From: a virus
Length of the DNA: 64,000 nucleotides
Reading direction: 5' to 3' (one strand)
Virus record (IMG/VR): IMGVR_UViG_3300013005_000034
Span: 9,652 to 73,651 of that record
Shown: one piece after another, positions 27,559-63,886 of the stretch
How the letters are laid out: every line of letters begins with the position of its first letter
How positions within the stretch are numbered: position 1 is the first letter of the stretch
Translations under genes and position numbers: made by a program
Notes under the pieces: model-generated
Database searches by the model: none
What the model saw: the letters and a program-made list of their open reading frames with translations, nothing else
What the model was told of the DNA's origin: nothing

Positions 27559-27574
27559 CAATTATAAATATGTA

Positions 27575-29816: not shown

Positions 29817-30562
29817 TTTAATTTTATAGTTTTTGATTTAATGAGATAAAAACCTAAACCAGTTAAGCCAACTAATATTATTACAATAGGCATCCAATTT
29901 CTTTTTGTAAATTGAGCTGTTTCTATTACTATATCTTTAAATTTTTTTTTAGCTTCTTCTATTGAGTAAGGAAAATAATCAAGTGAAAACACAGGATTTG
30001 ATAGTGCTTTCATTGTATAATCTTTTGGAGTTCTAATACCTGCATTTGCTCTTTGAACATTTTCAGGAAATACATAGTTAGGATTACTAACTGATACAGG
30101 ATAAAATATAGTCATAAACAATTGTCCTTGCGTAAAGCTATCAGGTACTTTGCCATTTACTAATACTTTTCTTAAACCTCTACTCAAAAAGCCATCTACA
30201 TATTCCATTTGCTCCTTGAAAGACATTTTTCTTAATTTATCAGTTCCAACAGCATCACTACCATCGGCTTTTGCATAATACATAGTTTTACCTCCAATCT
30301 TTGTCATAAATTGAATTAAACCAGTTGCACCTATGCTATTTGTTATTTCGGGATTGAAAGTTCCTGCCGATTCGTGTCGGAATAAGTTGATTAACCACTC
30401 AAAAGGCAAACCATACTTATCGGCTACATCTGAAACTTTTTGTAAATCTGTTTTTGTTACGTTGTAAATGGGATAACCTCCATACTTATAACCTTGCTTT
30501 ATTCGGTTTTGTATGTAGTCGTATGCTTTATTTATAGATTCTTGCCTATTATAAACACTCAC
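29813..30562 (-). CDS. lytic transglycosylase/lysozyme-like protein with C-terminal TM
   Basis: HES.GTF.P...N..GATGLIQF; C-terminal hydrophobic anchor. Confidence 0.75.
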   Translation of the reverse strand: MSVYNRQESINKAYDYIQNRIKQGYKYGGYPIYNVTKTDLQKVSDVADKYGLPFEWLINLFRHESAGTFNPEITNSIGATGLIQFMTKIGGKTMYYAKADGSDAVGTDKLRKMSFKEQMEYVDGFLSRGLRKVLVNGKVPDSFTQGQLFMTIFYPVSVSNPNYVFPENVQRANAGIRTPKDYTMKALSNPVFSLDYFPYSIEEAKKKFKDIVIETAQFTKRNWMPIVIILVGLTGLGFYLIKSKTIKLK

Positions 30563-45685: not shown

Positions 45686-47233
45686 TTACATATCATTTTT
45701 AATCTGATAAAAGAAATCTTTTACCGAAACTTTTGATAATGGCACTAAATTATCAAATTTATTTCCATTAATCGGCTTAACTTTATTTCTAAATAAATCA
45801 AAATTATCAGTTTTTGTTAAAAGTTTTGATTTTTCAAGCTGTTGCTGAACTAAAATCAACTTAACTGACGATTGACCCTGAATAGTAAAGTTTGAAAGAG
45901 AAGTATTTGCATCTAAAGTAAAACCCCTATTACCAAAATCAATTTTTGATACTGATGCTTGGAACTGATTAACATTCAAAGACAAAGCAGGGAATTTAGG
46001 ATAGTAAAAAGCCTTACCATTTGCATCTTTTGTTGTTGCGTATATTACCTGATTTATGTTAGCAATGTTATTTGAATATAACATAAATTGCTTAACATTA
46101 ACAGGGTTGTATAGTAAATCTCTTACAAAGTCGTTATAATTAAAGCTACCACCTATGTATGTTGTTGTGGTTACAGCAGGGGAAACAAATCCCGATGTAT
46201 TATTTGAGTTATTAGCAGTATATAAAGTGTTGCTTAAATTGTTATACGCAGAAGCTATTGGGCTACCTGCCATACTTATAGTTGATGCTACTGAATTAGT
46301 TATTGCATTTATTTCAACAATCGTATTTGAAAAAAAACAAGCAACATATATTATATTTAATTGAGAATTGTATGACAAATCAAAAGGGGAAGCACCAATA
46401 GGTATTGTAGCTATTACTGTATTAGTGTTACAATCTATAACTGAAATATCATTACTGCCATTATTGCTTACATACATACAGTTATTAAATGGGCAATATT
46501 GAATATATATAGGTGAAGCACCAACGGGTATTGGTAAACCAACAACCGTATTACTAAAACAATCTATTACATAAACGCCATTCGTTAATGTATCAGGGAT
46601 ATACATAGCGTTATTTGTAGTGTTATATTCTATTCTCAATGAACTTGTAGCTAATGGTATTGTAGATATAATTGTATTTGTATTACAATCTAAAATACCA
46701 ATAACACTTGATATAAGTTGAGATACTACATAAATAGTATTATTTGTAGTGTTTAAAGCTAAACCATTTGTTCCAAAAAAAGGCAATAAAATTGTGGTAA
46801 TGTCTAAATTAGTTGCGCAATCAACAACTCTAATTTGATTATTATTAAGATATATATAAATAGTATTGTTAATACTATTATATAATACTTCTTGAGGTAT
46901 TCCTATTGTTGCGGTAGAAGTAAATATTACTGAATTTGTATTACAATCTATTACGTTAAAATCATTAGAACTTTGATTTATAACATACATAGTATTGTTC
47001 GTGGTATTGTAGGCTATATCTAATGGATTAGTTCCAACAGTAATAGGAGTTCCAACAACACTCGGAGGTAAAGTTGGTGCAGGTACGGTTTGAACATTTG
47101 TCAAAGTTGTTGTATTAAATAAATCATAACTTACAGGCAAACCAGTAGCATTAACTAAATCAAATTCAGTCAAATAATACTGATTTTGATTTATGCCATA
47201 CTTTTCTCCCTCTGTTTTATTAATTATACTCAT
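45686..47233 (-). CDS. structural protein with inserted YVTN-type beta-propeller
   Basis: Repeats G..P....Y...NN..YV.N..SN...VID; flanking segments homologous to 54977-55759. Confidence 0.72.
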   Translation of the reverse strand: MSIINKTEGEKYGINQNQYYLTEFDLVNATGLPVSYDLFNTTTLTNVQTVPAPTLPPSVVGTPITVGTNPLDIAYNTTNNTMYVINQSSNDFNVIDCNTNSVIFTSTATIGIPQEVLYNSINNTIYIYLNNNQIRVVDCATNLDITTILLPFFGTNGLALNTTNNTIYVVSQLISSVIGILDCNTNTIISTIPLATSSLRIEYNTTNNAMYIPDTLTNGVYVIDCFSNTVVGLPIPVGASPIYIQYCPFNNCMYVSNNGSNDISVIDCNTNTVIATIPIGASPFDLSYNSQLNIIYVACFFSNTIVEINAITNSVASTISMAGSPIASAYNNLSNTLYTANNSNNTSGFVSPAVTTTTYIGGSFNYNDFVRDLLYNPVNVKQFMLYSNNIANINQVIYATTKDANGKAFYYPKFPALSLNVNQFQASVSKIDFGNRGFTLDANTSLSNFTIQGQSSVKLILVQQQLEKSKLLTKTDNFDLFRNKVKPINGNKFDNLVPLSKVSVKDFFYQIKNDM

Positions 47234-50810: not shown

Positions 50811-51170
50811 TTAAATTATTGCCTTGTTTAAATTTTCCCAAATAGAATTACCCTCAATAGTATTTCCTTCGTCAATAATTAGTTTCTTTCCACCATCAAG
50901 ATAAGTTCCTTTTTTTAAATATCCAGTTATTCCTTTTGTAGTAATAGAAAATCTATTATTATTGAAAAAAGCAGCTTGATTTTTACCGTTATTAAAATCA
51001 ACCATAACTGTATCTTTAGCTGAATTAATCAGTTTTGCTCCCCCTAAATTATCTGCAACATCATCAAAGTTTTTCTTATCAGAATTTCTATATATTAAAA
51101 AATAATAAACTGCACCTATTAATCCTAATGTCGCTGCAACTGCGATTATCCCTTTTGTATTTTTATTCAT
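50811..51170 (-). CDS. single-TM protein
   Basis: N-terminal TM. Confidence 0.6.
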   Translation of the reverse strand: MNKNTKGIIAVAATLGLIGAVYYFLIYRNSDKKNFDDVADNLGGAKLINSAKDTVMVDFNNGKNQAAFFNNNRFSITTKGITGYLKKGTYLDGGKKLIIDEGNTIEGNSIWENLNKAII

Positions 51171-51597
51171 GACCTTTTTGTTCTAATTTATAATAAGGCT
51201 TCAAAAAGCATTTAACATATTTTTTTCCACTTATGAAGTCATAAGGATATTTAGGCTCACGACCTAAAGCTATTCTCATATCTTCCATGCTCATTTCAAC
51301 TACCGTTTCGCCTCCATGCTCAAATTTCTTTTTTAAATTATCGTCAGAATGTTTTTTATCATCTCTTGATTCGTGATAAATTTGTTTTACATCATCAGGA
51401 TAATTCCCATCACTATCTTTTTTAAATTTTTCAATTTCAGATTTCAATGGTCTTTTAAATCTTAATTTTTTACCTTTTTTGTTTAAAGTTCCATCTTTTT
51501 TAGTAAGAGCATCAATTCCATCTGTTTTGAAACGATAACCAGTTGGTTTTGCTTTTACTGCCTTATCTTTAGCACTTGCTTTTTTCTTCTTTGCCAT
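51163..51597 (-). CDS. basic protein with FEHGG linker and shared C-terminal tag
   Basis: Lys-rich N-terminus; C-terminus LGREPKYPY..I.G....KCFLKPYYKL. Confidence 0.7.
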   Translation of the reverse strand: MAKKKKASAKDKAVKAKPTGYRFKTDGIDALTKKDGTLNKKGKKLRFKRPLKSEIEKFKKDSDGNYPDDVKQIYHESRDDKKHSDDNLKKKFEHGGETVVEMSMEDMRIALGREPKYPYDFISGKKYVKCFLKPYYKLEQKGHE

Positions 51598-51619
51598 TTT
51601 TATTTTGGGTTTTTGAAAA

Positions 51620-53791
51620 TTAAATTTTATAAAAATTTCTTAAATATGCTTTTTCTAAAACTAAACTACCTATAACTTGTTTTGGATAGTTTGGTTCATG
51701 TCCTAATATTTTTGTTAATTTACATATACAGATTTCGCCATTCTGTAAATTTTCACGAACTAACATTTCAGCAGATTTAGAAAATTCTTTTGATGCTGAT
51801 TTTAAATCATCTTGGTATTCGATTCCACCGCCTGTTTCTTTGTAGTATTCTTTAGGTTTAACTTCATAGTGTAATTTTAAATTTGGTTTATTTAATTTTA
51901 CAGACAATATTTCCCTTTCTTTAATAGCTTCATAAGGTGTATTATGTATTGAAATAATTTTATTTGTTTTATTATCTATAACGTATGATATTGATGGCTT
52001 ATATAACTGCCAACTTTCATCGTACTTTGCGTTGGGATTTCCAATAAACGTATCGCCTACTTTATAATTCCCAACCCCACCGCCATTGGCGTATCTTTTA
52101 GGAATTGTATCAAAATAATCTTGCATATAAGTTGCCATTCCATCTATGTAATATTCAAAACTATTATATCCATTTTTTTCTAATTTTGATATTTTAGAAT
52201 AACCTCTTTTTATGCTTTTTGCAAATTCTTCTGCTTCTTTTAAATTATCTGTCCAAAAAGATTTTGATTTAGGGTTGTTTTCTAATTCATTTACATAACC
52301 TACCTGATATTTACTTATACCATGACCAACCCCACCGCCATTGGCGTATTCCATAACTTCTGGAAATAAATCTAATCCTTTTTTTGTAAATTTCCATTTT
52401 GAAGTGTCAATATCTTCAATAGTATTCGCTTTTATTGTATTCCATCTATTCCCTAATACATCAACAATATTAATGTAAAATTTTCCCGTTTTTGGTTCAA
52501 AGTAGTAACTATTATCTTTATATTCAGCTATTAAAATTTTACTTTCAACCCCACCGCCATTTTTAAATCTCTTTAATTTCCAATTATAAAATTCATCTAA
52601 TATGTATTTTTCAGCATTTTCCCAATCTTCGGGTACATTTTGTCCCCATTCAATTTCGTCATTCATCCTACTTGATGATGGTGCTTCAATAATATAACCA
52701 TCATAATCAAGAATTGATGCGCCTTCGCTATCTTCTGTTTCAAAAGAGAAATCATAACGACCAAGCCTTCTATCCGTATTGTCAGAAAAATCAATATTTT
52801 TAATTATTTCCTTGTTTGACAAAACCATTCCTCCCATTTCATATCCATTATCGGCAAGGCTATAATAATTATCTGAATTTGGAACTATTATCATGCTATC
52901 TAAAACGGTTACATTAAACATTTTTAATGCAGTTTTAACTTGTTGATATAATTTAATATCTGCTTCGCTCGGTCTATTATTTCCGCTTGGATGATTGTGT
53001 GCTAAAATTACACCTTTAGATAATGTTTTTAAAGCTAAAGCACCAATCATTTCAACATCAACTAAAGTAGAATTAATTGCGCCTTTTGTATGTTCATAAT
53101 ATCCTATTGGCTCATTTGCATTGTTTAAAAACAATACGTTCAATTCTTCACGAACATTTATGCTTTCTTTATTCCAAAGTTGTTTAAAAATTTCGTAAGC
53201 ATCTCTTGAACTACCAATTTTTGTTTTTTCAATGCCAAAATCTTGACGAACAAGTGTAATATCAATAAGTGCAATATCAATTTCGCTAATCTTTTGATTA
53301 TTAGGCTCATTTATAACAATAGGAGTTTCTGAACTTAAATCAGGATATTTCATTATTCCGCCAGTAGCAAATTTTTTTTGACTTGCTCTATTGCCAATTT
53401 TATAATCTAAATGATGATATAAGTTATCAATATCATTAGCTGATATAGCTAATTTATTCTCTTGCCATGACATTAACTTAGAACCGCCTTTAATCATTTC
53501 AATTAACTTGTTAGCGTATTTTGAAATTGATAAAAGTTGTTTTTTAAATATCATTCCTCCCTCATCAAATTTTTCCCAGCCCTCTAATGAGTGTGCAACA
53601 TCGGAAACATTTTGTTCAATACGAGTAAGTTTCATCTTTACCCATTCTTCTAAATTACTTTCTTCGGTTACGATAATATCTAATTTAACAGCATACTCAT
53701 AAATCATATCAAGATTTATTAATGCCATTTTTTTATCAAAATCAAATACATCAAAAACTCCACCTAAATCGTATTTATCCCAATGTTTCAT
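51620..53791 (-). CDS. multidomain putative polyprotein containing a RadC-like JAB domain
   Basis: EE..VLFLN...HNHPSG...PS.AD...VLD; eight GG linkers; shared C-terminal tag. Confidence 0.78.
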   Translation of the reverse strand: MKHWDKYDLGGVFDVFDFDKKMALINLDMIYEYAVKLDIIVTEESNLEEWVKMKLTRIEQNVSDVAHSLEGWEKFDEGGMIFKKQLLSISKYANKLIEMIKGGSKLMSWQENKLAISANDIDNLYHHLDYKIGNRASQKKFATGGIMKYPDLSSETPIVINEPNNQKISEIDIALIDITLVRQDFGIEKTKIGSSRDAYEIFKQLWNKESINVREELNVLFLNNANEPIGYYEHTKGAINSTLVDVEMIGALALKTLSKGVILAHNHPSGNNRPSEADIKLYQQVKTALKMFNVTVLDSMIIVPNSDNYYSLADNGYEMGGMVLSNKEIIKNIDFSDNTDRRLGRYDFSFETEDSEGASILDYDGYIIEAPSSSRMNDEIEWGQNVPEDWENAEKYILDEFYNWKLKRFKNGGGVESKILIAEYKDNSYYFEPKTGKFYINIVDVLGNRWNTIKANTIEDIDTSKWKFTKKGLDLFPEVMEYANGGGVGHGISKYQVGYVNELENNPKSKSFWTDNLKEAEEFAKSIKRGYSKISKLEKNGYNSFEYYIDGMATYMQDYFDTIPKRYANGGGVGNYKVGDTFIGNPNAKYDESWQLYKPSISYVIDNKTNKIISIHNTPYEAIKEREILSVKLNKPNLKLHYEVKPKEYYKETGGGIEYQDDLKSASKEFSKSAEMLVRENLQNGEICICKLTKILGHEPNYPKQVIGSLVLEKAYLRNFYKI

Positions 53792-53821
53792 TATTTTATT
53801 TTTTTTTTAATCTTACGTTTT

Positions 53822-54736
53822 TCATTTATTTTTTATATTTTCCCAATAAAGTTTTCTTACATCACTCATAATTTTTTTTGTTGCTTCGCTATGTTTTTTT
53901 CCAAAAAATGTATTTTTCTTATTAGATAATCTCAATTTTGCCATTTCACTTAATTTCTTTTTAGTTTCATCTGTCATAAATATTTTTCTTCCAGAAATTC
54001 TTTTTTTAATGTGTTCTGGAGATTGTTTTTTTCCTAATTTTGACAATCTCATATTTATTTTAGCCTGTTCGCTCATGGGCTTTTTCATATTTATAGTTTG
54101 AGCCTCTGTCATTTTTTTTCCTTTATTCCATGGTGTTTTTCCCTTTAGTGATTCGCTTATTTTTTTCTTACATTCATCACTTAAATTAATACCCCTTAAT
54201 TTACTTGGCTTACCAATTTTTGATAAACTCATTTTTAATATTGATTCTTTAGAATGATGTTTTCCAGTTATAAAAGGTTTAACCCCTTTTTTAGACAAAC
54301 TCATTTTTAATCTTGATTCTTTACTCTTTTTTTTACCTAATGAAGATAATCTCATTTTTAATTTTGATTCTTCACTATGTTTTCCGTTAGCACCACCACA
54401 TTCTCTTAAATTTAAACCAAACTCTCTATCAGTTGATTTATATATATTTGAATAATATATTTCTAAATAATTTAATTCTTCTTCTTTACAAATATGTATT
54501 ATTTCAAACTTATGATTCTCTATGCCATATTTTAATAAAGAATTATATAAATAAATTTGTTTTTTACAATGTAATTTTTTATAAATATAAAATCTACTAT
54601 ATAAATCATTAGATTGACCTATATAAACTTTATTGCTTGGAGATGTAATTTTATAAATACCAATCAACGCATTTTCTATATCTTTATTACAAGATATAGA
54701 AGATATATCAACAATGGTATTTTGTATTTTTTTCAT
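53822..54736 (-). CDS. GIY-YIG homing endonuclease with NUMOD3 repeats
   Basis: GIYKITSPS.KVYIGQS; HSEE(S/T)K.KM repeats; likely start ATG 54736. Confidence 0.88.
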   Translation of the reverse strand: MKKIQNTIVDISSISCNKDIENALIGIYKITSPSNKVYIGQSNDLYSRFYIYKKLHCKKQIYLYNSLLKYGIENHKFEIIHICKEEELNYLEIYYSNIYKSTDREFGLNLRECGGANGKHSEESKLKMRLSSLGKKKSKESRLKMSLSKKGVKPFITGKHHSKESILKMSLSKIGKPSKLRGINLSDECKKKISESLKGKTPWNKGKKMTEAQTINMKKPMSEQAKINMRLSKLGKKQSPEHIKKRISGRKIFMTDETKKKLSEMAKLRLSNKKNTFFGKKHSEATKKIMSDVRKLYWENIKNK

Positions 54737-54737
54737 A

Positions 54738-54887
54738 TTACAATTTCCCTTGTTTGCGTAAAACCTCACAAGCCTTCTTAACCGCATCTGAATATTTTTT
54801 CACTTTGCCTGTCGCCCAAATTGCTTTTGCTTCTTTTTGAATCATTTCCATTCTCGATTTGTTTGCGTTTTTTGTTGATTTTGCCAT
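54738..54887 (-). CDS. small basic protein (possible DNA-binding core protein)
   Basis: 49-aa ORF not in track: MAKSTKNANKSRMEMIQKEAKAIWATGKVKKYSDAVKKACEVLRKQGKL. Confidence 0.6.
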   Translation of the reverse strand: MAKSTKNANKSRMEMIQKEAKAIWATGKVKKYSDAVKKACEVLRKQGKL

Positions 54888-54976
54888 GATTTTTTGTTTT
54901 GGTTGTAAATTTAACTAATTAACTACTATTTATTTAATTTAAAAACAATTTTATTTTTAAACATTCTTTCTAACAA

Positions 54977-55759
54977 TCAAGAGTTAGTGTACTCTTTTAG
55001 AATAGAAAAATCAAAAGGTTTTACCGCTAATTCTTTTTGCCCCTTAAACATATTTTGCTTAAATGGACTTCCTACTGTATAATCATTCAATACTAAATCT
55101 TTTTCACTCCACTTTCTTAACTTGTTAGGACAAACACATGGAGCAGATGATAACATATTTGATTTGTCTATTTGCTTGTAAATTAACAATAAACCTATTT
55201 CTGAATTTGCTTCTACAAAAAATTGCCTAAACCATTGATTAACTCCTAAAATACAATTAGCAGTATCAAAATTAACTTGCCCTATCCAATTTTGAAATTG
55301 ATTTACTCCTATTGATAAACTCGGAAATACTGGAAATATTCTTCTATTACCATTTGCATCTTTGTATAAATGCTGAATTACTTGATTTAAGTTTGATTGA
55401 TTTTTAGAATAAAAATAAATTCTTCTTACCCAAGCAGGAGAATATACAAAATCTCTTACTGTTTCGTTATAATCTTCACTACCGCCAATCCAAAAAACAG
55501 GCGTTATAGGTGGAGGCAAAGGAGTAGGAGGAATTGGACTTCCTGAAACAATAGGTGGCTGAATATATCCATTAGGAGTATTTGGAACATTATATTGCTC
55601 CACAACAAAAGGCTGAAATAAATCAAAATATACATCTGAACTTGTTGGGTTGTTAATAGTGAAAAGCATTTCATCGTAATCACCATCTAAACCGTATTTT
55701 TCAGCTACACTTTTTTTTATTTTAACCTTTTCAATTTCAGGCTGCCAACAAGATTCCAC
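54977..55759 (-). CDS. putative structural beta-sandwich protein, paralog of the 45686-47233 scaffold
   Basis: Shared IGGS..YN..VRD..Y.P..V, KDANG and LS..VNQFQ motifs. Confidence 0.65.
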   Translation of the reverse strand: MESCWQPEIEKVKIKKSVAEKYGLDGDYDEMLFTINNPTSSDVYFDLFQPFVVEQYNVPNTPNGYIQPPIVSGSPIPPTPLPPPITPVFWIGGSEDYNETVRDFVYSPAWVRRIYFYSKNQSNLNQVIQHLYKDANGNRRIFPVFPSLSIGVNQFQNWIGQVNFDTANCILGVNQWFRQFFVEANSEIGLLLIYKQIDKSNMLSSAPCVCPNKLRKWSEKDLVLNDYTVGSPFKQNMFKGQKELAVKPFDFSILKEYTNS

Positions 55760-55760
55760 A

Positions 55761-56591
55761 TTATTTTTTTAGTGATTGAGATGTCATTGTCTTATTTTCC
55801 AATTCCCCTGATTCAAATTTTTTCATAAAGTCATCCAAAATCAAATATCTTTTTTTATTTAATTCGTTATTAGCACCTTTAAATACTTTTAGAAAAGCAT
55901 ATTGTGCCTCTATCATTGGATAGCCTAAAGATAAATAAATGTTTAGAGCATTAATATCAGCAGAAACTTCATCGCTAATTTCTCTGCCTATTTTTGGATT
56001 CATGTATTTATGAGAAAATTCATGTAATAAAATAACTAACCTCATAGGAATACTATATTTTTCAAAATCTGATTTTGAAATTTCAATAATACCAGTATTA
56101 TGTCCTATTCTTGCAGGTGTTGAAACATACTCTCCCGTTTTTCTATTTCTAATTTTGTTATAATAGTCAATGCAAAACTTACCATCATTAGAGCGATATA
56201 TACTTGGTTTTCTATCTCCTGCCGAAATAACACTTGCATTTGCGGAAAATTCTTTTGCAAATTTCACGAAGTTATGAATGTCTTTATCCGCCCAAAGAGG
56301 GTATGTTTTTAATTCTTGTGCATCAAATTTAACAATTGAAAAAGATTTATCCTCATCATTTGGAGTATTTCCTTTTTTAGTATTGAAAATTGAAAAAACT
56401 AATAATCTTGGTGTTTGAGGGAATTTTAATTCATATTCCTGATAACCATTTACTGTTCCTTTTCTACTTATATAATAAGTATTTGGCTTACTAAAATCTT
56501 TTGCAACAACACTAATTTCTTCGGGAGATTTTGTTTCTATTCCTAAAATTATAGTAAAAGGCAATCCATTACTCGGTATAGTAAAATTCAT
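55761..56591 (-). CDS. zincin-like metalloprotease
   Basis: LLHEFSH (HExxH) plus downstream E..AD. Confidence 0.7.
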   Translation of the reverse strand: MNFTIPSNGLPFTIILGIETKSPEEISVVAKDFSKPNTYYISRKGTVNGYQEYELKFPQTPRLLVFSIFNTKKGNTPNDEDKSFSIVKFDAQELKTYPLWADKDIHNFVKFAKEFSANASVISAGDRKPSIYRSNDGKFCIDYYNKIRNRKTGEYVSTPARIGHNTGIIEISKSDFEKYSIPMRLVILLHEFSHKYMNPKIGREISDEVSADINALNIYLSLGYPMIEAQYAFLKVFKGANNELNKKRYLILDDFMKKFESGELENKTMTSQSLKK

Positions 56592-56595
56592 TTTT

Positions 56596-57039
56596 TTATT
56601 TTCTTAATTTTTTAACTAAAAATATACCACCAACAACTAAAGCTAAACCACCAACAATTGCTACTGTAATTCCAACTGCTTTAGGCATACCTAAGAATTT
56701 ATCACTAACTTGAATGTTTTCAGTTGGTATTTCTTCTTTTTTTCCCAATTCTGCTTTTTGTTTTTCCAACTCTGATTTTTGTCTTTCTAATTCAGAGTTA
56801 GATTCTCTATCTTTTGATTTTTCCAAATCATATTTTTCTTGTACTTTTCTTGAACAATCTTCCCATTTTGTTTTTTTAGATTTTGAAAACCAAATCTTTC
56901 TTTTCTTTCCACAATTAAATTGTATTAATCTTGCAACTTCATCTTTTCTACTGTCTTTTTTAGCAGAAGATTCAGCAATTTTACCTACTCCTTTTGAAGC
57001 AAATCCAACACCCCTTGATATTAGTCCTACAATTGCCAT
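56596..57039 (-). CDS. C-terminally anchored membrane protein (KFLGMPKA family)
   Basis: 35-aa anchor DKFLGMPKAVGITVAIVGGLALVVGGIFLVKKLRK. Confidence 0.72.
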   Translation of the reverse strand: MAIVGLISRGVGFASKGVGKIAESSAKKDSRKDEVARLIQFNCGKKRKIWFSKSKKTKWEDCSRKVQEKYDLEKSKDRESNSELERQKSELEKQKAELGKKEEIPTENIQVSDKFLGMPKAVGITVAIVGGLALVVGGIFLVKKLRK

Positions 57040-57749
57040 TATTTTCTTAGTTTTTTAACTAAAAATATTCCACCAACAACTAAAGCTAAACCACCAACAA
57101 CTGCTACCGTAATTCCAACTGCTTTAGGCATACCTAAGAATTTATCACTATCTTCCATTTTTCTACTTGTTGTGTCTATTCTTTGTCTTTCTAAATCTAT
57201 TTTTTGTCTTTCTAAATCTATTTTTTGTTTTTCCAAATCTAATCCGCTTTCTTTACCTTGAGATTTTTCCAAATTGTATTTGTCTTGAACTTCTGAAATA
57301 CATTTTTGATATGCTTTCTTTTTGTCGCCACATTTACCACCAAATACACATTTTGGTTTTTTACCGCATCTAAGTTTTGCTAATCTTTCTATTTCAAGTT
57401 TATTAGAATCTTTAGTTGCTGATGCTTGTGCTACTTTACCAATACCTTGTGCAGTATCTCCAACTCCTTTTGCAATTTGTCCTGCTTCCGCATTTGAATA
57501 ATAATAATCCCCATTCGCACTTAAATAATATCCGTATGGAGTTGATTCATAAACTTCATTTCCTGCCATAAAATAATTAGGGACTACTGGATTTCTAAAG
57601 TTATTCATTTCATCAAACGCAGGGTATCTTGCCGAACCCCCAAAACTATCTTCTAATCTATCGCCTTGTGGCAATAAAGTTGGAACATAGTCCACTAAGT
57701 TTGAAAAACTTTGGTCTAATTTATTTGTATTTGTTAAATCTAACGCCAT
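57039..57749 (-). CDS. C-terminally anchored membrane protein (KFLGMPKA family)
   Basis: Same anchor; N-terminus LDLTNTNKLDQSFSN; CGKKP motif. Confidence 0.72.
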   Translation of the reverse strand: MALDLTNTNKLDQSFSNLVDYVPTLLPQGDRLEDSFGGSARYPAFDEMNNFRNPVVPNYFMAGNEVYESTPYGYYLSANGDYYYSNAEAGQIAKGVGDTAQGIGKVAQASATKDSNKLEIERLAKLRCGKKPKCVFGGKCGDKKKAYQKCISEVQDKYNLEKSQGKESGLDLEKQKIDLERQKIDLERQRIDTTSRKMEDSDKFLGMPKAVGITVAVVGGLALVVGGIFLVKKLRK

Positions 57750-57760
57750 GATTTTTTATT

Positions 57761-59896
57761 TTATACTAATTTATAATAAGGTCTTAAATAACATTTTTCG
57801 AGTTTAATTGCACCTACAATTTGATAAGGGTAATTAGGTTTGCAACCAATAATTTCAGTTAATTTTTCGCAAGATATTTCGCCATTGAAAAGATTTGATT
57901 TTACCATTTCTTCTATGCTATCCAATTTAATTGATTCTTTTCTTTTTTTCAATTCCTCTTTTAGAGTTTGAATATCATCTTCTGTATTTTCAAATCTTGA
58001 AAGATTAATAATAGCATCGGTTAAAGCATCATTAGAGTATTCTGAAAAATTGCCAACACTACCGCCTATTTCATAAATATTATTTGAGTACAATACATAA
58101 GAGTTTGTGTTCCCGTATCTTTCCATTAATCCACTACCTTCAAACTCTTTTCTTTTAATTTCATTCAAAGTATTGAAATAAGGGCTAACTACTTGTATTC
58201 TATTATCACTATAAGTTTTTGATGCAGTTACTCCATCATAGTTTTTATTTATATAATCTATTTTCTTTTGTAGATTTGAAATATCTTCCTCTTTAGATTG
58301 TTTTTGTCTTTCTATAATTATTTCAATTGCTCTTTTTGCTACTAAAATTCTTTCATTAATCCACTTATAAGCTAAAGGTCTTGCGTATTGAGGTTTAAAT
58401 CCACTTCCGATAATTTTTGAAGGTCTAATTTCTTTATTATCAAGTTGTAATTTTAAATCTTGATATTCCCTTATTTCTTTTTCAAATTTTTCAATAGTAG
58501 GTTTAGTTGCCCACCTTGATTCATCTGTATAGAAATTAGCTTGTTTTTCAATATCATTCATATCTATTTCTCCAACCCCACCGCCATTAGCGTATTTATT
58601 TTTAAATTCTTTTTCAGCTTTTTTTATAGCATATTCAAATGTTTGTGCGCCTAAAACTCTACCCATAGGTTTGCCATTAATTGCAACTTCCCACATATCA
58701 CTACCTCCAACTCTTTGAACAGAGATATTGTCTTTTTTGAAAACCTTATCTTTTGTAAAAGGTCGCTCAATCCCACCACCATTAGCGTATTTCTTTCCGT
58801 TTTTAGCATCTTCTAAAAGAATATTAAGATTTTCTCTTGAAGTTTCTATATCTCCATCACCATCACTACCCATATCATTATCAACTTCAAATTGTTCTTG
58901 CAAAACATCTTCTTTTTGTTCTTTTGATAATTTTTGGTATATGTTATATGCTTCAATAGATTGGTCTTGTAGCATTTCCAATAATTTCAATTTCCAGTTA
59001 AAATCATCATTAATGAAATTAGATTTTGCATATAAATCATTTATCTTGTTTTCAATTTCTCCTCCATCTCTATACCAATCGCCAAACCAACCCTCTTTTT
59101 TGTATTCTTTCCATTCACGCTTTCTTTTATATTTTTGTTCGTGTGGTTCTTGCGACTTGAACAAATTATCTCTGCCTGAATTTATTCCACCGCCTTTAGC
59201 GTATGTTCCTTTTTCATAAAAATCAATATCAATTACTTTTTGCATATTTTCATTTGGATATACTCCTACATCAAACATTTTTCCTACAAAATAATTACGA
59301 GCTTGTTCTTCGGTTGTAGTTGAGCTTACATTAGTTTCATAATTATATTTTGAGTCTGCGAATTTAACTCTTACCATTCCTAAAGATTTAGTGTAGTCAT
59401 TCATTTCGCCTCCATTTTCGTATTCTTCAAAATCCTTTAATTGATTTAAAGATAACTCAATAGGTCTTAATCCATAAGGTTCTGCATCTAAACCATAATC
59501 AAAAGTATAACCTAATTGTTCTAAATCTCCTTCTAATTTTTTCAGGTTATCATAATCCCATTCATTTCCACCCATTTCGTAATACATATTAAAAATAGAT
59601 GAAACATTTTCAGGCATTAATTCATAATATTGAAATAAATCAACAAATTGAGAATCTACCATTCTATTTAAAACAGCATTTTTAATGCTTTCAGGAACGC
59701 TATCTAATTTAGTTCCTAAATGTTCGCCCATTTCAACTTCTGTATAATCTCCAATATACTGATTAAATCCCTCTCCACCCTCACTCATTCCATAAACCGC
59801 CCCATCAGGAGTAAAAACGGTATATCTATCGTAAGTTTCTCCGTTATTATCATAAACTTTCGTTATTTCTAATATTCTTTTATCGAGATTATTCAT
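57761..59896 (-). CDS. multidomain putative polyprotein
   Basis: YDN.GET.DRYT domain; six or seven [YF]xxGG motifs; shared C-terminal tag. Confidence 0.75.
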   Translation of the reverse strand: MNNLDKRILEITKVYDNNGETYDRYTVFTPDGAVYGMSEGGEGFNQYIGDYTEVEMGEHLGTKLDSVPESIKNAVLNRMVDSQFVDLFQYYELMPENVSSIFNMYYEMGGNEWDYDNLKKLEGDLEQLGYTFDYGLDAEPYGLRPIELSLNQLKDFEEYENGGEMNDYTKSLGMVRVKFADSKYNYETNVSSTTTEEQARNYFVGKMFDVGVYPNENMQKVIDIDFYEKGTYAKGGGINSGRDNLFKSQEPHEQKYKRKREWKEYKKEGWFGDWYRDGGEIENKINDLYAKSNFINDDFNWKLKLLEMLQDQSIEAYNIYQKLSKEQKEDVLQEQFEVDNDMGSDGDGDIETSRENLNILLEDAKNGKKYANGGGIERPFTKDKVFKKDNISVQRVGGSDMWEVAINGKPMGRVLGAQTFEYAIKKAEKEFKNKYANGGGVGEIDMNDIEKQANFYTDESRWATKPTIEKFEKEIREYQDLKLQLDNKEIRPSKIIGSGFKPQYARPLAYKWINERILVAKRAIEIIIERQKQSKEEDISNLQKKIDYINKNYDGVTASKTYSDNRIQVVSPYFNTLNEIKRKEFEGSGLMERYGNTNSYVLYSNNIYEIGGSVGNFSEYSNDALTDAIINLSRFENTEDDIQTLKEELKKRKESIKLDSIEEMVKSNLFNGEISCEKLTEIIGCKPNYPYQIVGAIKLEKCYLRPYYKLV

Positions 59897-59952: not shown

Positions 59953-60816
59953 TTATTTTCTTAGTTTTTTTACTAAAAATATTCCACCAACAACTAAAGC
60001 TAATCCACCAACAACTGCTACTGTAATTCCAATTGCTTTAGGCATACCTAAGAATTTATCATTGATAGTTTCAATTTCTTTTTCTATTGTTTTTTCAACA
60101 GTAGATTTATCAATAGTTTCGGAATCTTTTTCTTTTACATCAGACTTATCTGATTTTTTAGGAGTTAATCCTTCTAAACTTTTAACTGATTTTGGTATAG
60201 AAACAGATGTAACTGTCGCTTTAGGCTGCGTACTTGCAGTAACAACATTAGGTGCAACTGTTGTATTTACAGGAGCAGTTACAGGCTTTGGAATAGGAGC
60301 TAAACCTTTGGCTTGTAATTTTAATTGAGCAAGTCCTCCTGATTTTTTAAATTCTCTCCATTTCTTTCTCCAACCCCATTTAATTATACCTTTGTTTGTA
60401 GCCCTACATTTCTCCCAAGATTCTATATTTTTTCTTTGTTCTGCTCTTTTAACAGCTTGATTTCTATTAGTCGCACAACAATCTTTATTGTAGTTTTTAG
60501 ATTTTGAACAATCCCAAAGACATATCACATTAGGGTATTTAATATCTGGATTTAATGGTTTGATACCACATTCCCCAATAGATATTTTAGCTTTACCATA
60601 TTGCGCTTTAAGTTCTAATTTTTTATTTTTAACTAAAGCTCTATACTTTGGTAATTCTTCCTCTGAAACGCCTTCCTCATCTGATGGTTCGGAATCAGTA
60701 TTTTCTTCATCCTCATATTCTTTATCATCTTCGCCATCCGCACTGGAATAAACACCATTAGTGTTTAATATGCTTTCATCAAGACCATCTGCATTTAATA
60801 AGTCTAAATCTCTCAT
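59953..60816 (-). CDS. C-terminally anchored membrane protein (KFLGMPKA family)
   Basis: N-terminus DLDLLNADGLDES; anchor present. Confidence 0.72.
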   Translation of the reverse strand: MRDLDLLNADGLDESILNTNGVYSSADGEDDKEYEDEENTDSEPSDEEGVSEEELPKYRALVKNKKLELKAQYGKAKISIGECGIKPLNPDIKYPNVICLWDCSKSKNYNKDCCATNRNQAVKRAEQRKNIESWEKCRATNKGIIKWGWRKKWREFKKSGGLAQLKLQAKGLAPIPKPVTAPVNTTVAPNVVTASTQPKATVTSVSIPKSVKSLEGLTPKKSDKSDVKEKDSETIDKSTVEKTIEKEIETINDKFLGMPKAIGITVAVVGGLALVVGGIFLVKKLRK

Positions 60817-60848
60817 TTTTAAAAAAATTTTGTTAATAAATTATTTAT

Positions 60849-60874
60849 TGCTCACCTTATTAACAAGGCGAGCA
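60849..60874 (-). terminator. intergenic stem-loop
   Basis: TGCTCACCTT / AAGGCGAGCA. Confidence 0.5.
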
Positions 60875-60918
60875 TTTTATATTTTATTGTAAATCAAACA
60901 ATTATACTATATTAATAT

Positions 60919-61104
60919 TTATTTTGGAATGTTTGTCCATCCTTTTCCTTGTAGCCAATCTAAACAAGGTTTATTTGAACGGTTTTTGTTACAAACTTCT
61001 CCTGCTGCATTTGATTTGGTTTCTCCCTTAGATTTTTTCCATAAGTAGTAACCTATACCTGCTACTGCTACTGCTCCTAATCCGATTAATAAATTTTTTT
61101 TCAT
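60919..61104 (-). CDS. small single-TM protein
   Basis: N-terminal TM; SNAAG motif. Confidence 0.6.
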   Translation of the reverse strand: MKKNLLIGLGAVAVAGIGYYLWKKSKGETKSNAAGEVCNKNRSNKPCLDWLQGKGWTNIPK

Positions 61105-61136
61105 AATTTTTACTTTTTAATTGTTTTTATTGTTTT

Positions 61137-62126
61137 TTATTTTCTTAATTTTTTAACTAAAAATATTCCACCAACGATTAATGCTAAACCGCCTACAATT
61201 GCTACCGTAATTCCAATTGCTTTAGGCATACCTAAGAATTTATCTTCTGCATCATCGCTATCATCTTCTTCTTTTGATTTATCTGTCGCACCACCTGCAT
61301 CATCTTCTGAAGCTGTTTTTTCAACTTCGTTTATAATATCATTATTTGCTTCTGATTCAGATGGCTCGTTACCTGCATCTTCTTTTTTATCACTATCAAA
61401 TTCTTTACCATCGGGAGAGCCTTCTTCAAAAGGATTTTCATCAGCTCCCTCTTTTTTAAATACACCTTTAAGCCATGCGAAAAATGCTCTAATTCCTTTT
61501 ACTTCTTCTTCTTGCGAAGGAACTTCTTCTACATCTCCTTCGGCAGATAATGTTCCCTCTACATAACTATATTCATCACCATCTTGACTATAATAAATAT
61601 TACAATCAGGTGCAAAATATGAATAGAAATCTAAACCATTATTCCCATCTGCTGATTTATAAGGCATTTTTAAAAATCTTTTTTTACTGCCCTCTATAAT
61701 TGCATTTTTAATTTCATCTTCGCTGCCTCCAAGATTTTTCCACTTAGAAACTAATTTACTATAAATAGATTTAGAAGAATTAACGAATTTAGCCTTGTAT
61801 TTTCTTTGCTTTACAACATCAGTATTACCAACAGCAGGATATAATTTAGATGCTACACCATGAATATTATTTTTAATATTAAATAATATTCCTTTTCTCA
61901 TAACTCTACGGAAATTGTTACGAAAATTCTTACCTGCTTTACCTACTTTATCTTTTAAATTAGTAGTTACCTTTTTTATTTTGTCCTTAATTTTATCTTT
62001 ACCTTTTTTAATCTTATCCTTTATTTTATCTTTGCCTTTTTTGAATTTATCTCTTAGCTTTTTTCCAATAGCATCAGAATATTCTTCTCCCAAAAGGTCT
62101 GAATTTATTAAATCTAAATCTTCCAT
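61137..62126 (-). CDS. C-terminally anchored membrane protein (KFLGMPKA family)
   Basis: N-terminus DLDLINSD.L; basic region followed by acidic region; anchor present. Confidence 0.72.
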   Translation of the reverse strand: MEDLDLINSDLLGEEYSDAIGKKLRDKFKKGKDKIKDKIKKGKDKIKDKIKKVTTNLKDKVGKAGKNFRNNFRRVMRKGILFNIKNNIHGVASKLYPAVGNTDVVKQRKYKAKFVNSSKSIYSKLVSKWKNLGGSEDEIKNAIIEGSKKRFLKMPYKSADGNNGLDFYSYFAPDCNIYYSQDGDEYSYVEGTLSAEGDVEEVPSQEEEVKGIRAFFAWLKGVFKKEGADENPFEEGSPDGKEFDSDKKEDAGNEPSESEANNDIINEVEKTASEDDAGGATDKSKEEDDSDDAEDKFLGMPKAIGITVAIVGGLALIVGGIFLVKKLRK

Positions 62127-62146
62127 TTTATTTATTTTTAATTAAT

Positions 62147-62671
62147 TTATTTTCTTATTTTTTTTACTAAAAATATTCCACCAACTATTAAAGCTAAACC
62201 ACCAACAACTGCTACTGTAATTCCAATTGCTTTAGGCATACCTAAGAATTTAGCTGATTCTTCTTTTTCAGGTGCTAATCTTTCTGTGCTTGGTGGTGGA
62301 GGTGCTGTTTCAGTTTTTGTTTCTGATTTTATAACATTTTGAGTGCAAGTTTCATATTTTTCTCTCCTTTTTTTACCTGCTTTCCCTAAAGACAAAACAC
62401 CAATAGGTTTTCTGCCACAAACTGATTTAATCTTTTGTTCAATTTCTGATTTAGGTTTACCTTTTATTAAACCTGCTGCAATACTGGTAGCTTGTTTTAC
62501 TAATTCAGGATTTTCTTTAGCAAATTCACCTACTTTTTTAGCAGCTTCAGCTGCATCACCATTTGAAAAATTTTCTCCATTTGCTCCACAGCAATATGAA
62601 TAATTATCCCCGATAGCATTTGAAATACTTTCGTCAAGACCATTAGCGTTTAATAATTCTAAATCTACCAT
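62147..62671 (-). CDS. C-terminally anchored membrane protein (KFLGMPKA family)
   Basis: N-terminus DLELLNANGLDESISNA; CGRKP motif; anchor present. Confidence 0.72.
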   Translation of the reverse strand: MVDLELLNANGLDESISNAIGDNYSYCCGANGENFSNGDAAEAAKKVGEFAKENPELVKQATSIAAGLIKGKPKSEIEQKIKSVCGRKPIGVLSLGKAGKKRREKYETCTQNVIKSETKTETAPPPPSTERLAPEKEESAKFLGMPKAIGITVAVVGGLALIVGGIFLVKKIRK

Positions 62672-62700
62672 TTTTTTTTTATTTTAATTAATTTTTGTTT

Positions 62701-63141
62701 TTAAACTTTTGTAGTTGCCGAAACATTTGGATTTACTGATGAACTACTTGTTGCACCACCATTTGTTCCTGCTCCTCCCCCTATGCTTATTGTTTTTTTG
62801 TTATTAAAAAATTTTTTATATAATAAATATCCTCCAACAGCCAAAGTTATTCCTACAATACCATAAAATAATAAAGGCTTCATTCCTAATATTTTATCGT
62901 CTTTTTCTTCCTCTTTTTGTTCAAGCCTTTTTGAAAAAGATTGTTTTTCAAAGTTTGGAGTTTCGTAAGATTCATTTTCTTCTTCATCTTCAATTACCTT
63001 TTCAACATCTTCTTTTATTGGTTGAGGATTTTTAGCTCTTTGTGCTGTTTTTTGAATCCTTTCAGTTTTTAAAGAATTTTTTAAATTACTACTATTTGAT
63101 ACTGTTTCGTCAAGTAGATTTGCATTTGCTAATTGTGTCAT
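62701..63141 (-). CDS. membrane protein, divergent family member
   Basis: LANANLLDETVSN; KILGMKP-TM. Confidence 0.65.
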   Translation of the reverse strand: MTQLANANLLDETVSNSSNLKNSLKTERIQKTAQRAKNPQPIKEDVEKVIEDEEENESYETPNFEKQSFSKRLEQKEEEKDDKILGMKPLLFYGIVGITLAVGGYLLYKKFFNNKKTISIGGGAGTNGGATSSSSVNPNVSATTKV

Positions 63142-63175
63142 TTTTCTTTGATTTGTTTTTGGTTTATTTATTTAT

Positions 63176-63886
63176 TTATTTTTTGAATTTTTTCCACATA
63201 AAGAATCCTACTGATAATGCTACAAGAACACCACCTCCAATTAATAATATTTTTCTATTTTTAGATTTAGATTCACTTTCATCTTTCAATCTATTTTGCT
63301 CTGCTAATTTTACTTCCTCTGACTTTGCTTTAGCCTCTGCCTCCGCTTTTTGTAATTGAAATTTTTTCTCAGCATCTTCTGCTTCTTTTTTAGCTTTTGC
63401 TCTTTCAGCAGCACTTTTATTTTCGGCATCAACTTGTGCTTGTTTTGCTTTCAAAGTATCAGCTTGTAATTTTTCAAGTTCAGCAATTTTATTTTTTTTA
63501 AAATCAGGTAATTCAGGAAAATAGTAGTAATTACCCTCTATATCTCCTTTTGTAAAACCTTTATCCTTTGGGTATGGGATTAATTTGTTTCTATCCACCT
63601 TTTTACCTCCTCCCAAATCAACTATTTCTTTTTCTCCTAAAGGAACATTTCCGTCTTTATCAATTCTAATTCCATATAATACAGTTCCATCAATAAATTT
63701 TTTAAATAATCTCTTTCTTTTACCATTCCAAATTGATTCTAAATAAAATCCATCACCTAAATCTTTAACACTTTTTTCGCTTTTTACAACAGAAGCCTCT
63801 GTTTCTACTTTTTCTTTTGCAACTCCTCCTGCTTGACTAAAACTTTCATCAAGACCATTAGCGTTTAATAATTCTAAATTGTTCAT
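63176..63886 (-). CDS. C-terminally anchored coiled-coil membrane protein
   Basis: N-terminus NLELLNANGLDESFS; C-terminal TM. Confidence 0.68.
   Translation of the reverse strand: MNNLELLNANGLDESFSQAGGVAKEKVETEASVVKSEKSVKDLGDGFYLESIWNGKRKRLFKKFIDGTVLYGIRIDKDGNVPLGEKEIVDLGGGKKVDRNKLIPYPKDKGFTKGDIEGNYYYFPELPDFKKNKIAELEKLQADTLKAKQAQVDAENKSAAERAKAKKEAEDAEKKFQLQKAEAEAKAKSEEVKLAEQNRLKDESESKSKNRKILLIGGGVLVALSVGFFMWKKFKK

Follow-up and report, generated by a model that had tools for sequence, protein, structure and literature searches.

Phage polyvalent proteins organized as strings of small modules with a shared Gly-Gly joint and a common C-terminal domain

In phage T4, proteins bearing an N-terminal capsid targeting sequence (CTS) of ~10 aa are encoded one per gene and are processed by a serine protease, the prohead protease gp21, at Glu-directed sites, and the T4 protein Alt is an ADP-ribosyltransferase. 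Adenain of adenovirus and pS273R of ASFV, both eukaryotic viruses, are cysteine proteases of clan CE that mature core and polyprotein precursors at (hydrophobic)-x-G-G sites, and adenain releases several products per precursor, short basic peptides included. Polyproteins described from ASFV are pp220 and pp62 (PMC10308890). The T4 internal proteins and Alt are described as diverse defence-countering proteins which have a common short address, are encapsidated and are then trimmed by a phage protease (PMC3012670), and the giant phage SPN3US is described as carrying an ejection-protein bolus of head-internal proteins that enter the cell, several of which are cut by the prohead protease (PMC7411985). 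Polyvalent proteins of phages and conjugative elements have been predicted to act as counter-defence factors that are injected (Iyer, Burroughs, Anand, de Souza, and Aravind, 2017; PMC5512222); processing by a zincin-like metallopeptidase and delivery together with the DNA are themes proposed for them, and some, such as the N4 virion RNA polymerase, ArdC and TraC1, travel uncut (PMC5512222). In T4-type gp38 adhesins, conserved Gly-rich motifs part interchangeable hypervariable segments (PMC3157838).

Here we describe a locus of an uncultured lake phage, for which no match was found among 50,697 phage records. It lies in a window of 64,000 nucleotides, the whole stretch of DNA that was analysed (positions 9,652 to 73,651 of IMG/VR record IMGVR_UViG_3300013005_000034). 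A preliminary description had reported three GG-linked proteins with a common C-terminal tag and a protease gene between them; the three reading frames are present, all on the minus strand, in the following arrangement:

51163-51597, minus strand: A144, 144 aa, with a lysine-rich N-terminal domain, GG (aa 95-96) and the tag (aa 97-144)
51620-53791, minus strand: B723, 723 aa, a polyvalent protein with seven [YF]xxGG(G) joints, KETGGG and the C-terminal tag
51623..51787, minus strand: tag domain of B723, from alignments
52844..53215, minus strand: RadC-like JAB domain of B723, aa 193-316 (PF04002, 1.6e-30)
53822..54787, minus strand: GIY-YIG/NUMOD3 homing endonuclease gene, inserted between the peptidase block and B723
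54977..55759, minus strand: 260-aa protein directly downstream of the peptidase gene, a paralogue of 45686-47233
55761..56591, minus strand: 276-aa candidate processing peptidase, with an N-terminal beta-sandwich (aa 1-96) and a zincin-like domain
57761-59896, minus strand: C711, 711 aa, a polyvalent protein with seven [YF]xxGG(G) joints (aa 106-110, 159-163, 232-237, 275-279, 370-375, 435-440 and 608-612) and the C-terminal tag
57764..57928, minus strand: tag domain of C711, its last ~55 aa, from alignments and profile matches

The linkers of B723 are those listed previously (YDLGG, FDEGG, FATGG, YEMGG, FKNGGG, YANGGG twice and KETGGG), the last of which has its Tyr at -4 and not at -3; the protein opens with the 11-aa leader MKHWDKYDLGG and additionally contains a non-aromatic IKGG. 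For C711, the linkers named before (YENGG, YAKGGG, YRDGG, YANGGG twice and YEIGG) are all present, and a further one, YEMGG at aa 106-110, had been overlooked; two additional GG, in SEGG and RVGG, are non-aromatic. Both proteins contain seven [YF]xxGG motifs against a mean of 0.35-0.48 in shuffled sequences, none of 20,000 shuffles reaching seven, and together with A144 they hold 15 motifs in 1,578 aa, compared with 18 in 18,307 aa for the 102 remaining coding-strand ORFs. The FEHGG reported for A144 was also confirmed; this single [YF]xxGG is not significant alone (1134 of 20,000 shuffles), and A144 is conserved. The resemblance to adenovirus and ASFV sites that had been drawn from these motifs holds for the site grammar only: as judged by motif statistics, the sites between segments consist, as there, of a hydrophobic residue, two variable residues and Gly-Gly.

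The common C-terminal tag of ~50 aa aligns in B723, C711 and A144, and it is shared by all 12 of the 12 proteins taken from the window and from three related contigs. Across 1.84 billion proteins searched, the tag family comprises 294 cluster representatives; the tag lies within 12 aa of the C-terminus in 231 of 235 tag-bearing proteins, and of the 120 with a length of 300 aa or more, 108 have at least three joints. Joint density in the tag-bearing sets amounts to 451 in 53,789 aa and 376 in 45,555 aa. The joint consensus is K-[YF]-[AE]-[NK]-G-G-(G)-V, its third position also being given as x; of 449 joints, 194 have K at -4 and 141 have V at +1. As in the case of the T4 CTS, one conserved address would be common to otherwise unrelated proteins, and we infer that the C-terminal domain most likely serves to gather the uncut string at one place before cutting; by analogy with the CTS, loading of the string into the particle is our preferred reading. 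Unlike the CTS, the address would here be a C-terminal domain of ~50 aa on multi-module strings with Gly-Gly joints. The tag is not homologous to the CTS and occupies the opposite protein end, and the prohead serine proteases Peptidase_S77/S78 (PF03420, PF04586) were found in none of four records. The SPN3US system differs as well, with separate genes, another protease class and, in the abstract describing it, no repeated joint or common tag.

Alternatively, the proteins may act inside the cell instead of being particle cargo, with the tag as a nucleic-acid-binding or localisation domain, for example a winged helix tethering them to phage or host DNA. When the C711 tag was queried once against the ESM Atlas, its nearest neighbours by features and by structure were winged-helix families, at scores below the tool's bar and hence as a lead only, which was not reproduced when the A144 tag was used. 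The lysine-rich N-terminal domain of A144 would fit such an activity, as would the lack of recognised head genes near the block in the four related records (74-170 kb), which yielded no terminase, HK97-type capsid or prohead protease families, an absence that also counts against our overall reading. However, SLT, OmpA-like and fibre-like genes share a single long run of co-directional genes with the polyproteins, and a DNA-binding domain would be compatible with packaging alongside the DNA, and we consider a purely intracellular function unlikely.

Concerning the segments between the joints, their description as mostly unrelated agrees with our finding that, of 96 segments drawn from 14 proteins, 57 lack any partner at E<1e-4. 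The median module length is ~87 aa, and the 134 proteins examined gave 143 module families. Comparison of domain strings across relatives, which the preliminary description had suggested, revealed that modules are shuffled, with the same families at many ordinal positions; homologs of C711 likewise carry shuffled modules, and 45.5% of 4,609 BLAST homology ends fall no more than 10 aa from a joint, versus 20.0% at random. Moreover, a location of the GG motifs inside folded domains, named in the preliminary description as part of what would refute its reading, was not borne out by the Pfam matches: the interior is free of joints in eight of eight Pfam domain matches and the next joint starts 1-9 residues past the domain end in seven of these. 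For example, the PF04002 match in B723 spans profile positions 2-120 of 121 and carries a JAMM-type H-x-H...S-x-x-D motif (HNHPSG...SEAD; HNHPSGNNRPSEAD is readable in the translation), and the joint YEMGG begins at residue 317, directly after the end of this RadC domain, which B723 combines with at least seven further unrelated segments. C711 has no Pfam match above the cut-off. Tag-bearing relatives contain LPD11 (6.8e-27), ART-PolyVal (4.3e-50) and GNAT; some combine ART-PolyVal with GNAT, and LPD11 or DUF7659 is also carried. These results support the conclusion that B723 and C711 are strings of independent small modules, divided by a sequence-specific joint and ending in a shared C-terminal domain.

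The RadC domain found in the window and the ART-PolyVal, LPD11 and GNAT domains of tag-bearing relatives are hallmarks that identify these proteins as polyvalent as Iyer et al. (2017) used the term. They also resemble that class in combining many unrelated small domains in each phage polypeptide; the ART-PolyVal domain of the relatives in addition parallels the activity of T4 Alt. Unlike in the proteins described there, one strict joint motif lies here between the modules, and nearly every protein terminates in the same domain. The terms 'linker', 'glycine', 'spacer', 'boundar*' and 'packaging signal' are absent from the main text of that article (PMC5512222). A further difference is that the candidate peptidase is a separate gene and not an embedded MPTase domain for self-processing, which is a frequent but not an obligatory feature of polyvalent proteins: B723, C711 and A144 contain no peptidase family at E<=0.1 and no embedded zincin-like MPTase domain. 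Similar to gp38, short conserved Gly-rich sequences bound variable segments that are swapped between phages, but the motifs of gp38 form the structural core of one domain with the segments as loops, whereas here the segments are whole unrelated domains and the joints lie between them.

The joints are also conserved in their DNA beyond what the amino acids require (GGC GGT GGG GTT). Copies of the joint DNA lie at the following positions, which are given together with a module that varies between strains:

52073-52084, 52328-52339 and 52547-52558, minus strand: joint DNA GGCGGTGGGGTT in B723, three identical copies
58574..58585, minus strand: joint DNA GGCGGTGGGGTT in C711 (G438-V441)
58769..58780, minus strand: joint DNA GGTGGTGGGATT in C711 (G373-I376)
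58053..58571, minus strand: one whole C711 module (aa 442-614, 173 codons), absent from contigs of two other lake runs

All five matches of the DNA motif in the window lie within joints, where 0.01 would be expected. The third Gly codon is GGG in 25 of 38 joints versus 15 of 558 elsewhere (p=1.7e-24) and the first is GGC in 20 of 38 versus 37 of 558, and this conservation of synonymous codons shows a DNA-level constraint which alone could maintain the motif among close relatives. The deletion of the C711 module (join 58052->58572; X8 side 220, X9 side 162) has its breakpoints directly past YANGGGV and YEIGGSV, with 5 nt of microhomology, and in one run (X8, record 21) ~298 nt are inserted at the joint 58769..58780, the joint being repeated on either side. 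The joints are thus also DNA-level recombination sites, a role that was absent from the earlier sequence-only reading: gain, loss and exchange of modules between strains take place at this short conserved sequence.

The codon-level conservation and the module deletion and insertion exactly at the joints, with their microhomology, would equally be expected if the joints were never cut and acted as flexible hinges and recombination microhomology in full-length 'beads on a string', the motif persisting through concerted evolution of its DNA together with tolerance for it as a linker. This is in line with the restriction of the multi-copy DNA motif to this lineage (two or more copies in only 4 of 113 pattern-matching IMG/VR stretches, all in three related contigs), and precedents are described in uncut polyvalent proteins (PMC5512222) and in the Gly-rich motifs between interchangeable segments of T4 gp38 (PMC3157838). 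However, several observations favor a protein-level function, and cleavage in particular. The amino-acid motif, including the aromatic residue at -3, the K at -4 and the V at +1, is retained in the distant record G003, whose GG-type joints use mostly ordinary codons. In 35 of 201 proteins a joint ends within 25 aa of the N-terminus (range 7-25 aa), behind leaders such as that of B723, and 25 of 528 segments are shorter than 20 aa and thus too short for domains, so that these leader joints and tandem joints join no two domains. Furthermore, G95 and G96 are invariant in a 33-sequence alignment of the single-joint A144 family, where no module shuffling explains the GG. We therefore regard uncut joints as rather unlikely and favor the joint in the protein as most likely a cleavage site, which would free the modules and strip short leaders and spacers.

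With regard to the cutting enzyme, the HExxH protease gene noted previously does encode such a motif, HEFSH at aa 190-194, with H190, E191 and H194 invariant among 33 aligned homologs. The motif E208-x-x-A211-D212 lies, in the structure model (pLDDT 91.5), on the helix after the HExxH helix, and its three named residues do not vary among the 33 sequences; we take such an ExxAD-type downstream Glu ligand to be an M48-like gluzincin motif. Fold comparison of the C-terminal domain gave BepA (6sar, Z 7.8, 120 residues, rmsd 4.4), 3c37 (Z 6.6), ZMPSTE24 (6bh8, Z 6.4) and Ste24 (4il3, Z 6.0), so that the best matches are all of M48 type, at modest Z scores of 6.0-7.8; according to the tool, values below 8 can reflect a common arrangement. 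Foldseek against the PDB returned nothing at E<=0.001, the sequence profile had no match among PDB sequences at E<=1, and neither Pfam (E<=0.1) nor PHROG gave a match. The protein is a credible zinc peptidase whose modelled fold appears weakly M48-like. A homolog with the same gene order occurs in four of four related records, and the 54977..55759 protein is kept beside the peptidase in relatives. The homing endonuclease region is missing in variants X8 and X9 (join 53805->54777, with 182 other letters between), which places this gene outside the system.

The peptidase family is far wider than that of the polyproteins, and we therefore rejected 55761-56591 as a dedicated partner. Among 20 IMG/VR loci with a homolog, genuine GG-linked polyproteins lie within 10 kb at no more than the 4 closest (48-72% identity); only one of 20 genome loci with a homolog, L140, has tag ORFs in its flanks; and a copy on a Glaciecola chromosome adjoins a serine integrase and lysis-like genes, with no GG-linked protein there. 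M48 enzymes are not known to be specific for Gly-Gly. The neighbouring HExxH/ExxAD zinc peptidase is still the best available candidate, and that it cuts the joints is a tentative proposal which we hold to be somewhat doubtful. Another enzyme could act in its place, supplied either by the host or by the phage, in the latter case as an unrecognised cysteine protease of deubiquitinase, adenain or C39 type; the RadC-JAB module could also be responsible. The HExxH protein would then have a role elsewhere, for example in morphogenesis or at the cell envelope. Gly-Gly-directed cysteine proteases and JAMM enzymes act at sites similar to the hydrophobic-x-x-G-G pattern, the HExxH family is widespread without polyproteins, and the related record G001 encodes a permuted papain-like Peptidase_C92. 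This gene, however, adjoins an Amidase_2 gene, the two being read as a lysis pair, and has no homolog in the window, while RadC is present in only one of four records and cannot be the general enzyme. The earlier parallel with adenovirus and ASFV did not extend to the type of enzyme, as the candidate is a zinc peptidase and Peptidase_C48 (PF02902), the one clan CE family covered, was detected at E<=1 in none of four records, which are 53-84% complete and make this absence weak evidence. We consider cleavage by such another enzyme unlikely.

Taken together, we propose that B723 and C711 are regular polyvalent strings of small accessory or effector modules, each folding on its own, in which the joint is a recombination site and likely a cleavage site, the tag a common address and the HExxH peptidase the candidate cutter, a reading whose prospects we judge to be evenly balanced. 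The strings look like a swappable kit of infection-helper proteins. In a more far-reaching version, which we regard as speculative and rather improbable, each joint would have a dual use as a cassette boundary of ~15-21 nt for shuffling and as an encoded protease site; every strain would build a string of its own from 5-15 or more effectors, and these strings would be addressed by the tag, most likely to the particle, and cut, and would enter the host with the DNA as single proteins and short basic peptides. Such a system would resemble, at the level of proteins, the cassette array of an integron, put to use in phage counter-defence.

Finally, if the joints are true module boundaries, as their position around Pfam domains supports, they delimit hundreds of small, mostly unknown phage domains, which could be cloned singly for screens against bacterial defence systems. 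In lake populations, the insertion and deletion of modules at joints show an effector repertoire that changes naturally at a defined sequence, and tag and joint could serve as tools for cargo loading and release. If cleavage and addressing both hold true, the strings would constitute a third way of multi-protein phage delivery, beside the T4 CTS and MuF/portal-associated fusions, which are another route of phage protein delivery, and would provide a prokaryotic parallel, via a metallopeptidase, to the polyprotein maturation of adenovirus and ASFV.

The repeated [YF]xxGG motifs divide the two long proteins, B723 (51620-53791, minus strand) and C711 (57761-59896, minus strand), far more often than composition would predict. 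Every motif listed in the preliminary description is present in the ORFs, and one further motif, YEMGG at aa 106-110 of C711, had been overlooked. Each protein thus carries seven motifs against 0.35-0.48 expected from shuffled sequences, none of 20,000 shuffles reaching seven, and the remaining coding-strand ORFs, when pooled, hold 18 motifs in 18,307 aa. We refer to these sites as joints (consensus K-[YF]-[AE]-[NK]-G-G-(G)-V). The GG motifs could have fallen inside folded domains, but for recognizable domains this is not what we found: none of the eight Pfam matches in seven tag-bearing proteins (RadC, LPD11, DUF7659 twice, ART-PolyVal, GNAT, DUF7028 and a partial PRTase) contains a joint. 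In seven of the eight, the following joint starts 1-9 residues past the domain end, and in B723 YEMGG begins at the residue right after RadC. Across relatives the modules are shuffled: 633 segments taken from 134 proteins group into 143 families, of which 84 are singletons, and a single family may occupy many ordinal positions. The median joint-ended segment is 87 aa long (interquartile range 66-118). Of 4,609 internal BLAST homology ends, 45.5% fall no more than 10 aa from a joint, compared with 20.0% for random positions. Short basic modules, 36-50 aa long, recur, at times in tandem, in other records (L004:14309-20609, L140:1288-2280 and L014:2730-14150); examples are ...HAGKR.S.DGN.YYE.R.NRSD.NR.K.F.KGG and ...SWHSDRRQFNKSEDWEKPMSQRKNRYDNGGG, and they resemble the end of the N-terminal domain of A144 (51163-51597, minus strand). 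Were these modules released, the products would be small peptides, highly basic in composition. The motif-rich ORFs of L160 and L169 were rejected as polyproteins, being regular-expression false positives with fibre-like repeats (SG..SF[IV]GGG).

The common C-terminal domain, or tag, proposed for B723, C711 and A144 is present in all three and spans about 50 aa. A profile built from 12 tags recovered at least 138 proteins from a set of 5.8 billion, and 294 cluster representatives at E<=1e-3, including 119 at E<=1e-10, from 1.84 billion searched. The tag lies within 12 aa of the C-terminus in 231 of 235 locally rescored proteins, usually shortly after the last joint (median gap 17 aa). At least three joints occur in 108 of the 120 tag-bearing proteins of 300 aa or more, and two protein sets with little overlap contain 0.83-0.84 joints per 100 aa. 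Searches of Pfam, PDB sequences and the ESM Atlas linked the tag to no known family or solved structure and gave no fold lead that could be reproduced: a first Atlas query returned winged-helix neighbours with scores below the tool's bar, which were not reproduced with the A144 tag, itself without a usable Atlas match, and A144 profiles found nothing among PDB sequences and Pfam.

Polyprotein sets with the gene order of the window occur in two contigs with an HExxH protein of 70-72% identity and in a third at 52%, with lengths of 607, 222, 700 and 537 aa, 568, 223 and 928 aa, and 1939, 1656 and 263 aa, respectively. One string in the related record G003 (L014:8331-14150; 1939 aa, 13 joints) has no tag and ends …KNKRAY-stop, at the aromatic position of a would-be joint; the GG-joined architecture therefore also exists without the tag. 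No cultured relative was matched by megablast with the 8.7-kb stretch, nor by tblastn of the peptidase and A144 against 50,697 phage records. B723 matched phage records solely through RadC, and in Tenacibaculum phage Gundel_1 the matching domain forms a gene of its own, 149 aa long and surrounded by small genes near the end of the genome.

The window covers bases 9652-73651 of a linear virus record of 73.6 kb, 62% complete by CheckV; GC content is about 28%. The polyproteins and their neighbours are arranged as follows:

64000 down to 24190, minus strand: long block containing the polyproteins
56596-57749 and 59953-63886, minus strand: tail-anchored family, seven ORFs
53822-54787, minus strand: GIY-YIG/NUMOD3 homing endonuclease gene; contigs from two further lake runs have 182 other letters in its place
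54977-55759 and 45686-47233, and L004:10840-12564 and L024:2672-3496 in other records: paralogous family with a common C-terminal domain of about 120 aa (…KDANG…)
26386-27561, within the phage block: TnpB/IS605 OrfB-type gene (OrfB_IS605, Cas12f1-like TNB and HTH domains)

From the 64000 end, the block runs from the tail-anchored membrane protein family through C711, two further tail-anchored proteins, the HExxH gene with a 260-aa gene, the homing endonuclease, and B723 and A144 to small membrane proteins, OmpA-like and SLT proteins and, last, fibre-like proteins. Five of the seven tail-anchored ORFs end in a near-identical anchor, DKFLGMPKA-IGITVAVVGGLALVVGGIFLVKKLRK, and five or six open with LDLLNA[ND]GLDES.S, while their middles vary; the family also lies upstream of the peptidase gene in G001, G002 and G003. 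One KDANG-family member always follows the peptidase gene. In G001 and G002 the co-directional block begins with a member of 274-279 aa; an extra feature of the members of 515 and 574 aa is a weak match to a YNCE-like beta-propeller. The TnpB-type gene overlaps an opposite-strand ORF of 372 aa. The SLT-like protein (29813-30562) has at aa 25-29 a joint-like site, KQGYKYGG|YPIY, kept in its G001 homologue (GHKYGGYPV), and could, judging by this motif, be another substrate with a short leader.

The joint is also distinctive as DNA, and natural variants break at it. GGG-type joints are mostly written GGC GGT GGG GTT. The third Gly is encoded by GGG in 25 of 38 joints, a codon used for 15 of the 558 other Gly residues of these genes (p=1.7e-24); the first Gly is GGC in 20 of 38 joints, compared with 37 of 558; and TAC encodes Tyr in 24 of 45 joint positions against 104 of 443 elsewhere. 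The joint 12-mer pattern has five copies in the window, all within joints, where 0.01 would be expected; a looser DNA pattern gave mostly single matches in IMG/VR, which are likely due to chance. At least half of the sampled words of the stretch are present in each of nine lake-water metagenome runs (2018-2025), two of which may be the source of the record; no RNA run was among the sequencing runs listed as containing it. Contigs of two runs lack 519 nt, or 173 in-frame codons, corresponding to one whole C711 module, from just past YANGGGV to just past YEIGGSV with 5 nt of microhomology, and in one run an insertion of about 298 letters sits at a different joint, with joint copies on both sides. 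Gain and loss of modules at joints is therefore observed in nature, and the joint mediates module exchange. Variant joints with a side of fewer than 30 letters were left uncounted, among them 58591->58769 in X7, which would also be joint-to-joint, and a variant that goes back 2859 letters probably reflects mapping between the near-identical 3' ends of tail-anchored paralogues. The homing endonuclease gene, with 182 other letters in its place in two runs, is accordingly a mobile insertion polymorphism.

We infer that the joint may also be a cleavage site. In the distant G003 the motif is kept and GG-type joints are written in ordinary codons; a joint lies within 25 aa of the N-terminus in 35 of 201 proteins, in conserved leaders such as MKHWDKYDLGG, and 25 of 528 segments measure less than 20 aa, neither arrangement linking two domains; and the single-joint A144 family has an invariant GG. 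This persistence, the leaders and short segments and the invariant GG argue for a role of the joint in the protein. Counting against cleavage, some polyvalent proteins act uncut (PMC5512222). We put forward cleavage, a cutting enzyme and loading into the particle as hypotheses. A RadC-JAB domain was rejected as the general joint protease, as RadC is found in one of the four records (the window and G001-G003), and Peptidase_C48 (clan CE) and the prohead proteases S78 and S77 were each found in none of them.

A plausible processing enzyme is the HExxH protein (55761-56591, minus strand). Its confident model (pLDDT 91.5) combines an N-terminal beta-sandwich with a helical domain whose top fold matches are all M48-type peptidases, with modest scores (Z 6.0-7.8), and H190, E191, H194, E208, A211 and D212 are invariant among 33 homologues. 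The pairing of metalloprotease and polyproteins proposed earlier is kept, in the same gene order, in all four close records, but the family extends far beyond the polyproteins and the enzyme would thus not be a dedicated one. There are more than 400 metagenomic homologues, and real polyproteins lie within 10 kb of only the four closest (48-72% identity) of 20 IMG/VR loci, a count to which three small flagged ORFs in L165, L172 and L175 do not contribute; in 20 genome loci, mostly Bacteroidota-labelled MAGs, tag ORFs flank the homologue in L140 only. As to the host, these MAG labels alone hint at Bacteroidota. A 32%-identical homologue in the Glaciecola amylolytica chromosome (L154; CP034120.1, 890770-911528) lies in a prophage-like region with a large serine recombinase/integrase and endolysin-like (lysis-like) genes, and in this cultured bacterium may offer an experimental handle on the peptidase family.

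Because the tag sits at the far C-terminus, usually just past the last joint, it could act only on the uncut string if the joints are cut. By analogy, this would fit an address used before cutting, such as the capsid targeting sequence of T4 (PMC3012670). As to the particle itself, Terminase_6N, Terminase_6C, TerL_ATPase and Phage_capsid (HK97) were each found in none of the four records (74-170 kb, incomplete), and PHROG and Pfam scans of 40 larger ORFs of the window, G001, G002 and G003 turned up no head protein above the Pfam cut-off. The nearest head-type matches were weak, over short stretches, or below cut-off (such as phrog_2647, head decoration; phrog_18179, virion structural protein; XM1_gp53_minor_capsid, 16.5 bits). 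Polyproteins aside, G003 has almost no ORF above 520 aa; stop-codon recoding was rejected as the cause of the missing large genes, as the longest frames gain no length when TGA or TAG is opened. Two readings are left: the missing portions of the records contain the head genes, or the particle is unusual.

Finally, RadC, ART-PolyVal, LPD11 and GNAT are domains of polyvalent proteins, which are predicted to be injected with the DNA and processed by zincin-like peptidases (PMC5512222). In its main text, that study says nothing of linkers, glycine, spacers, boundaries or packaging signals, and in the literature searched we found no report of phage polyproteins joined by Gly-Gly. The architecture is real and striking, and we regard it as a form of phage polyvalent protein that is both new and regular in its build.
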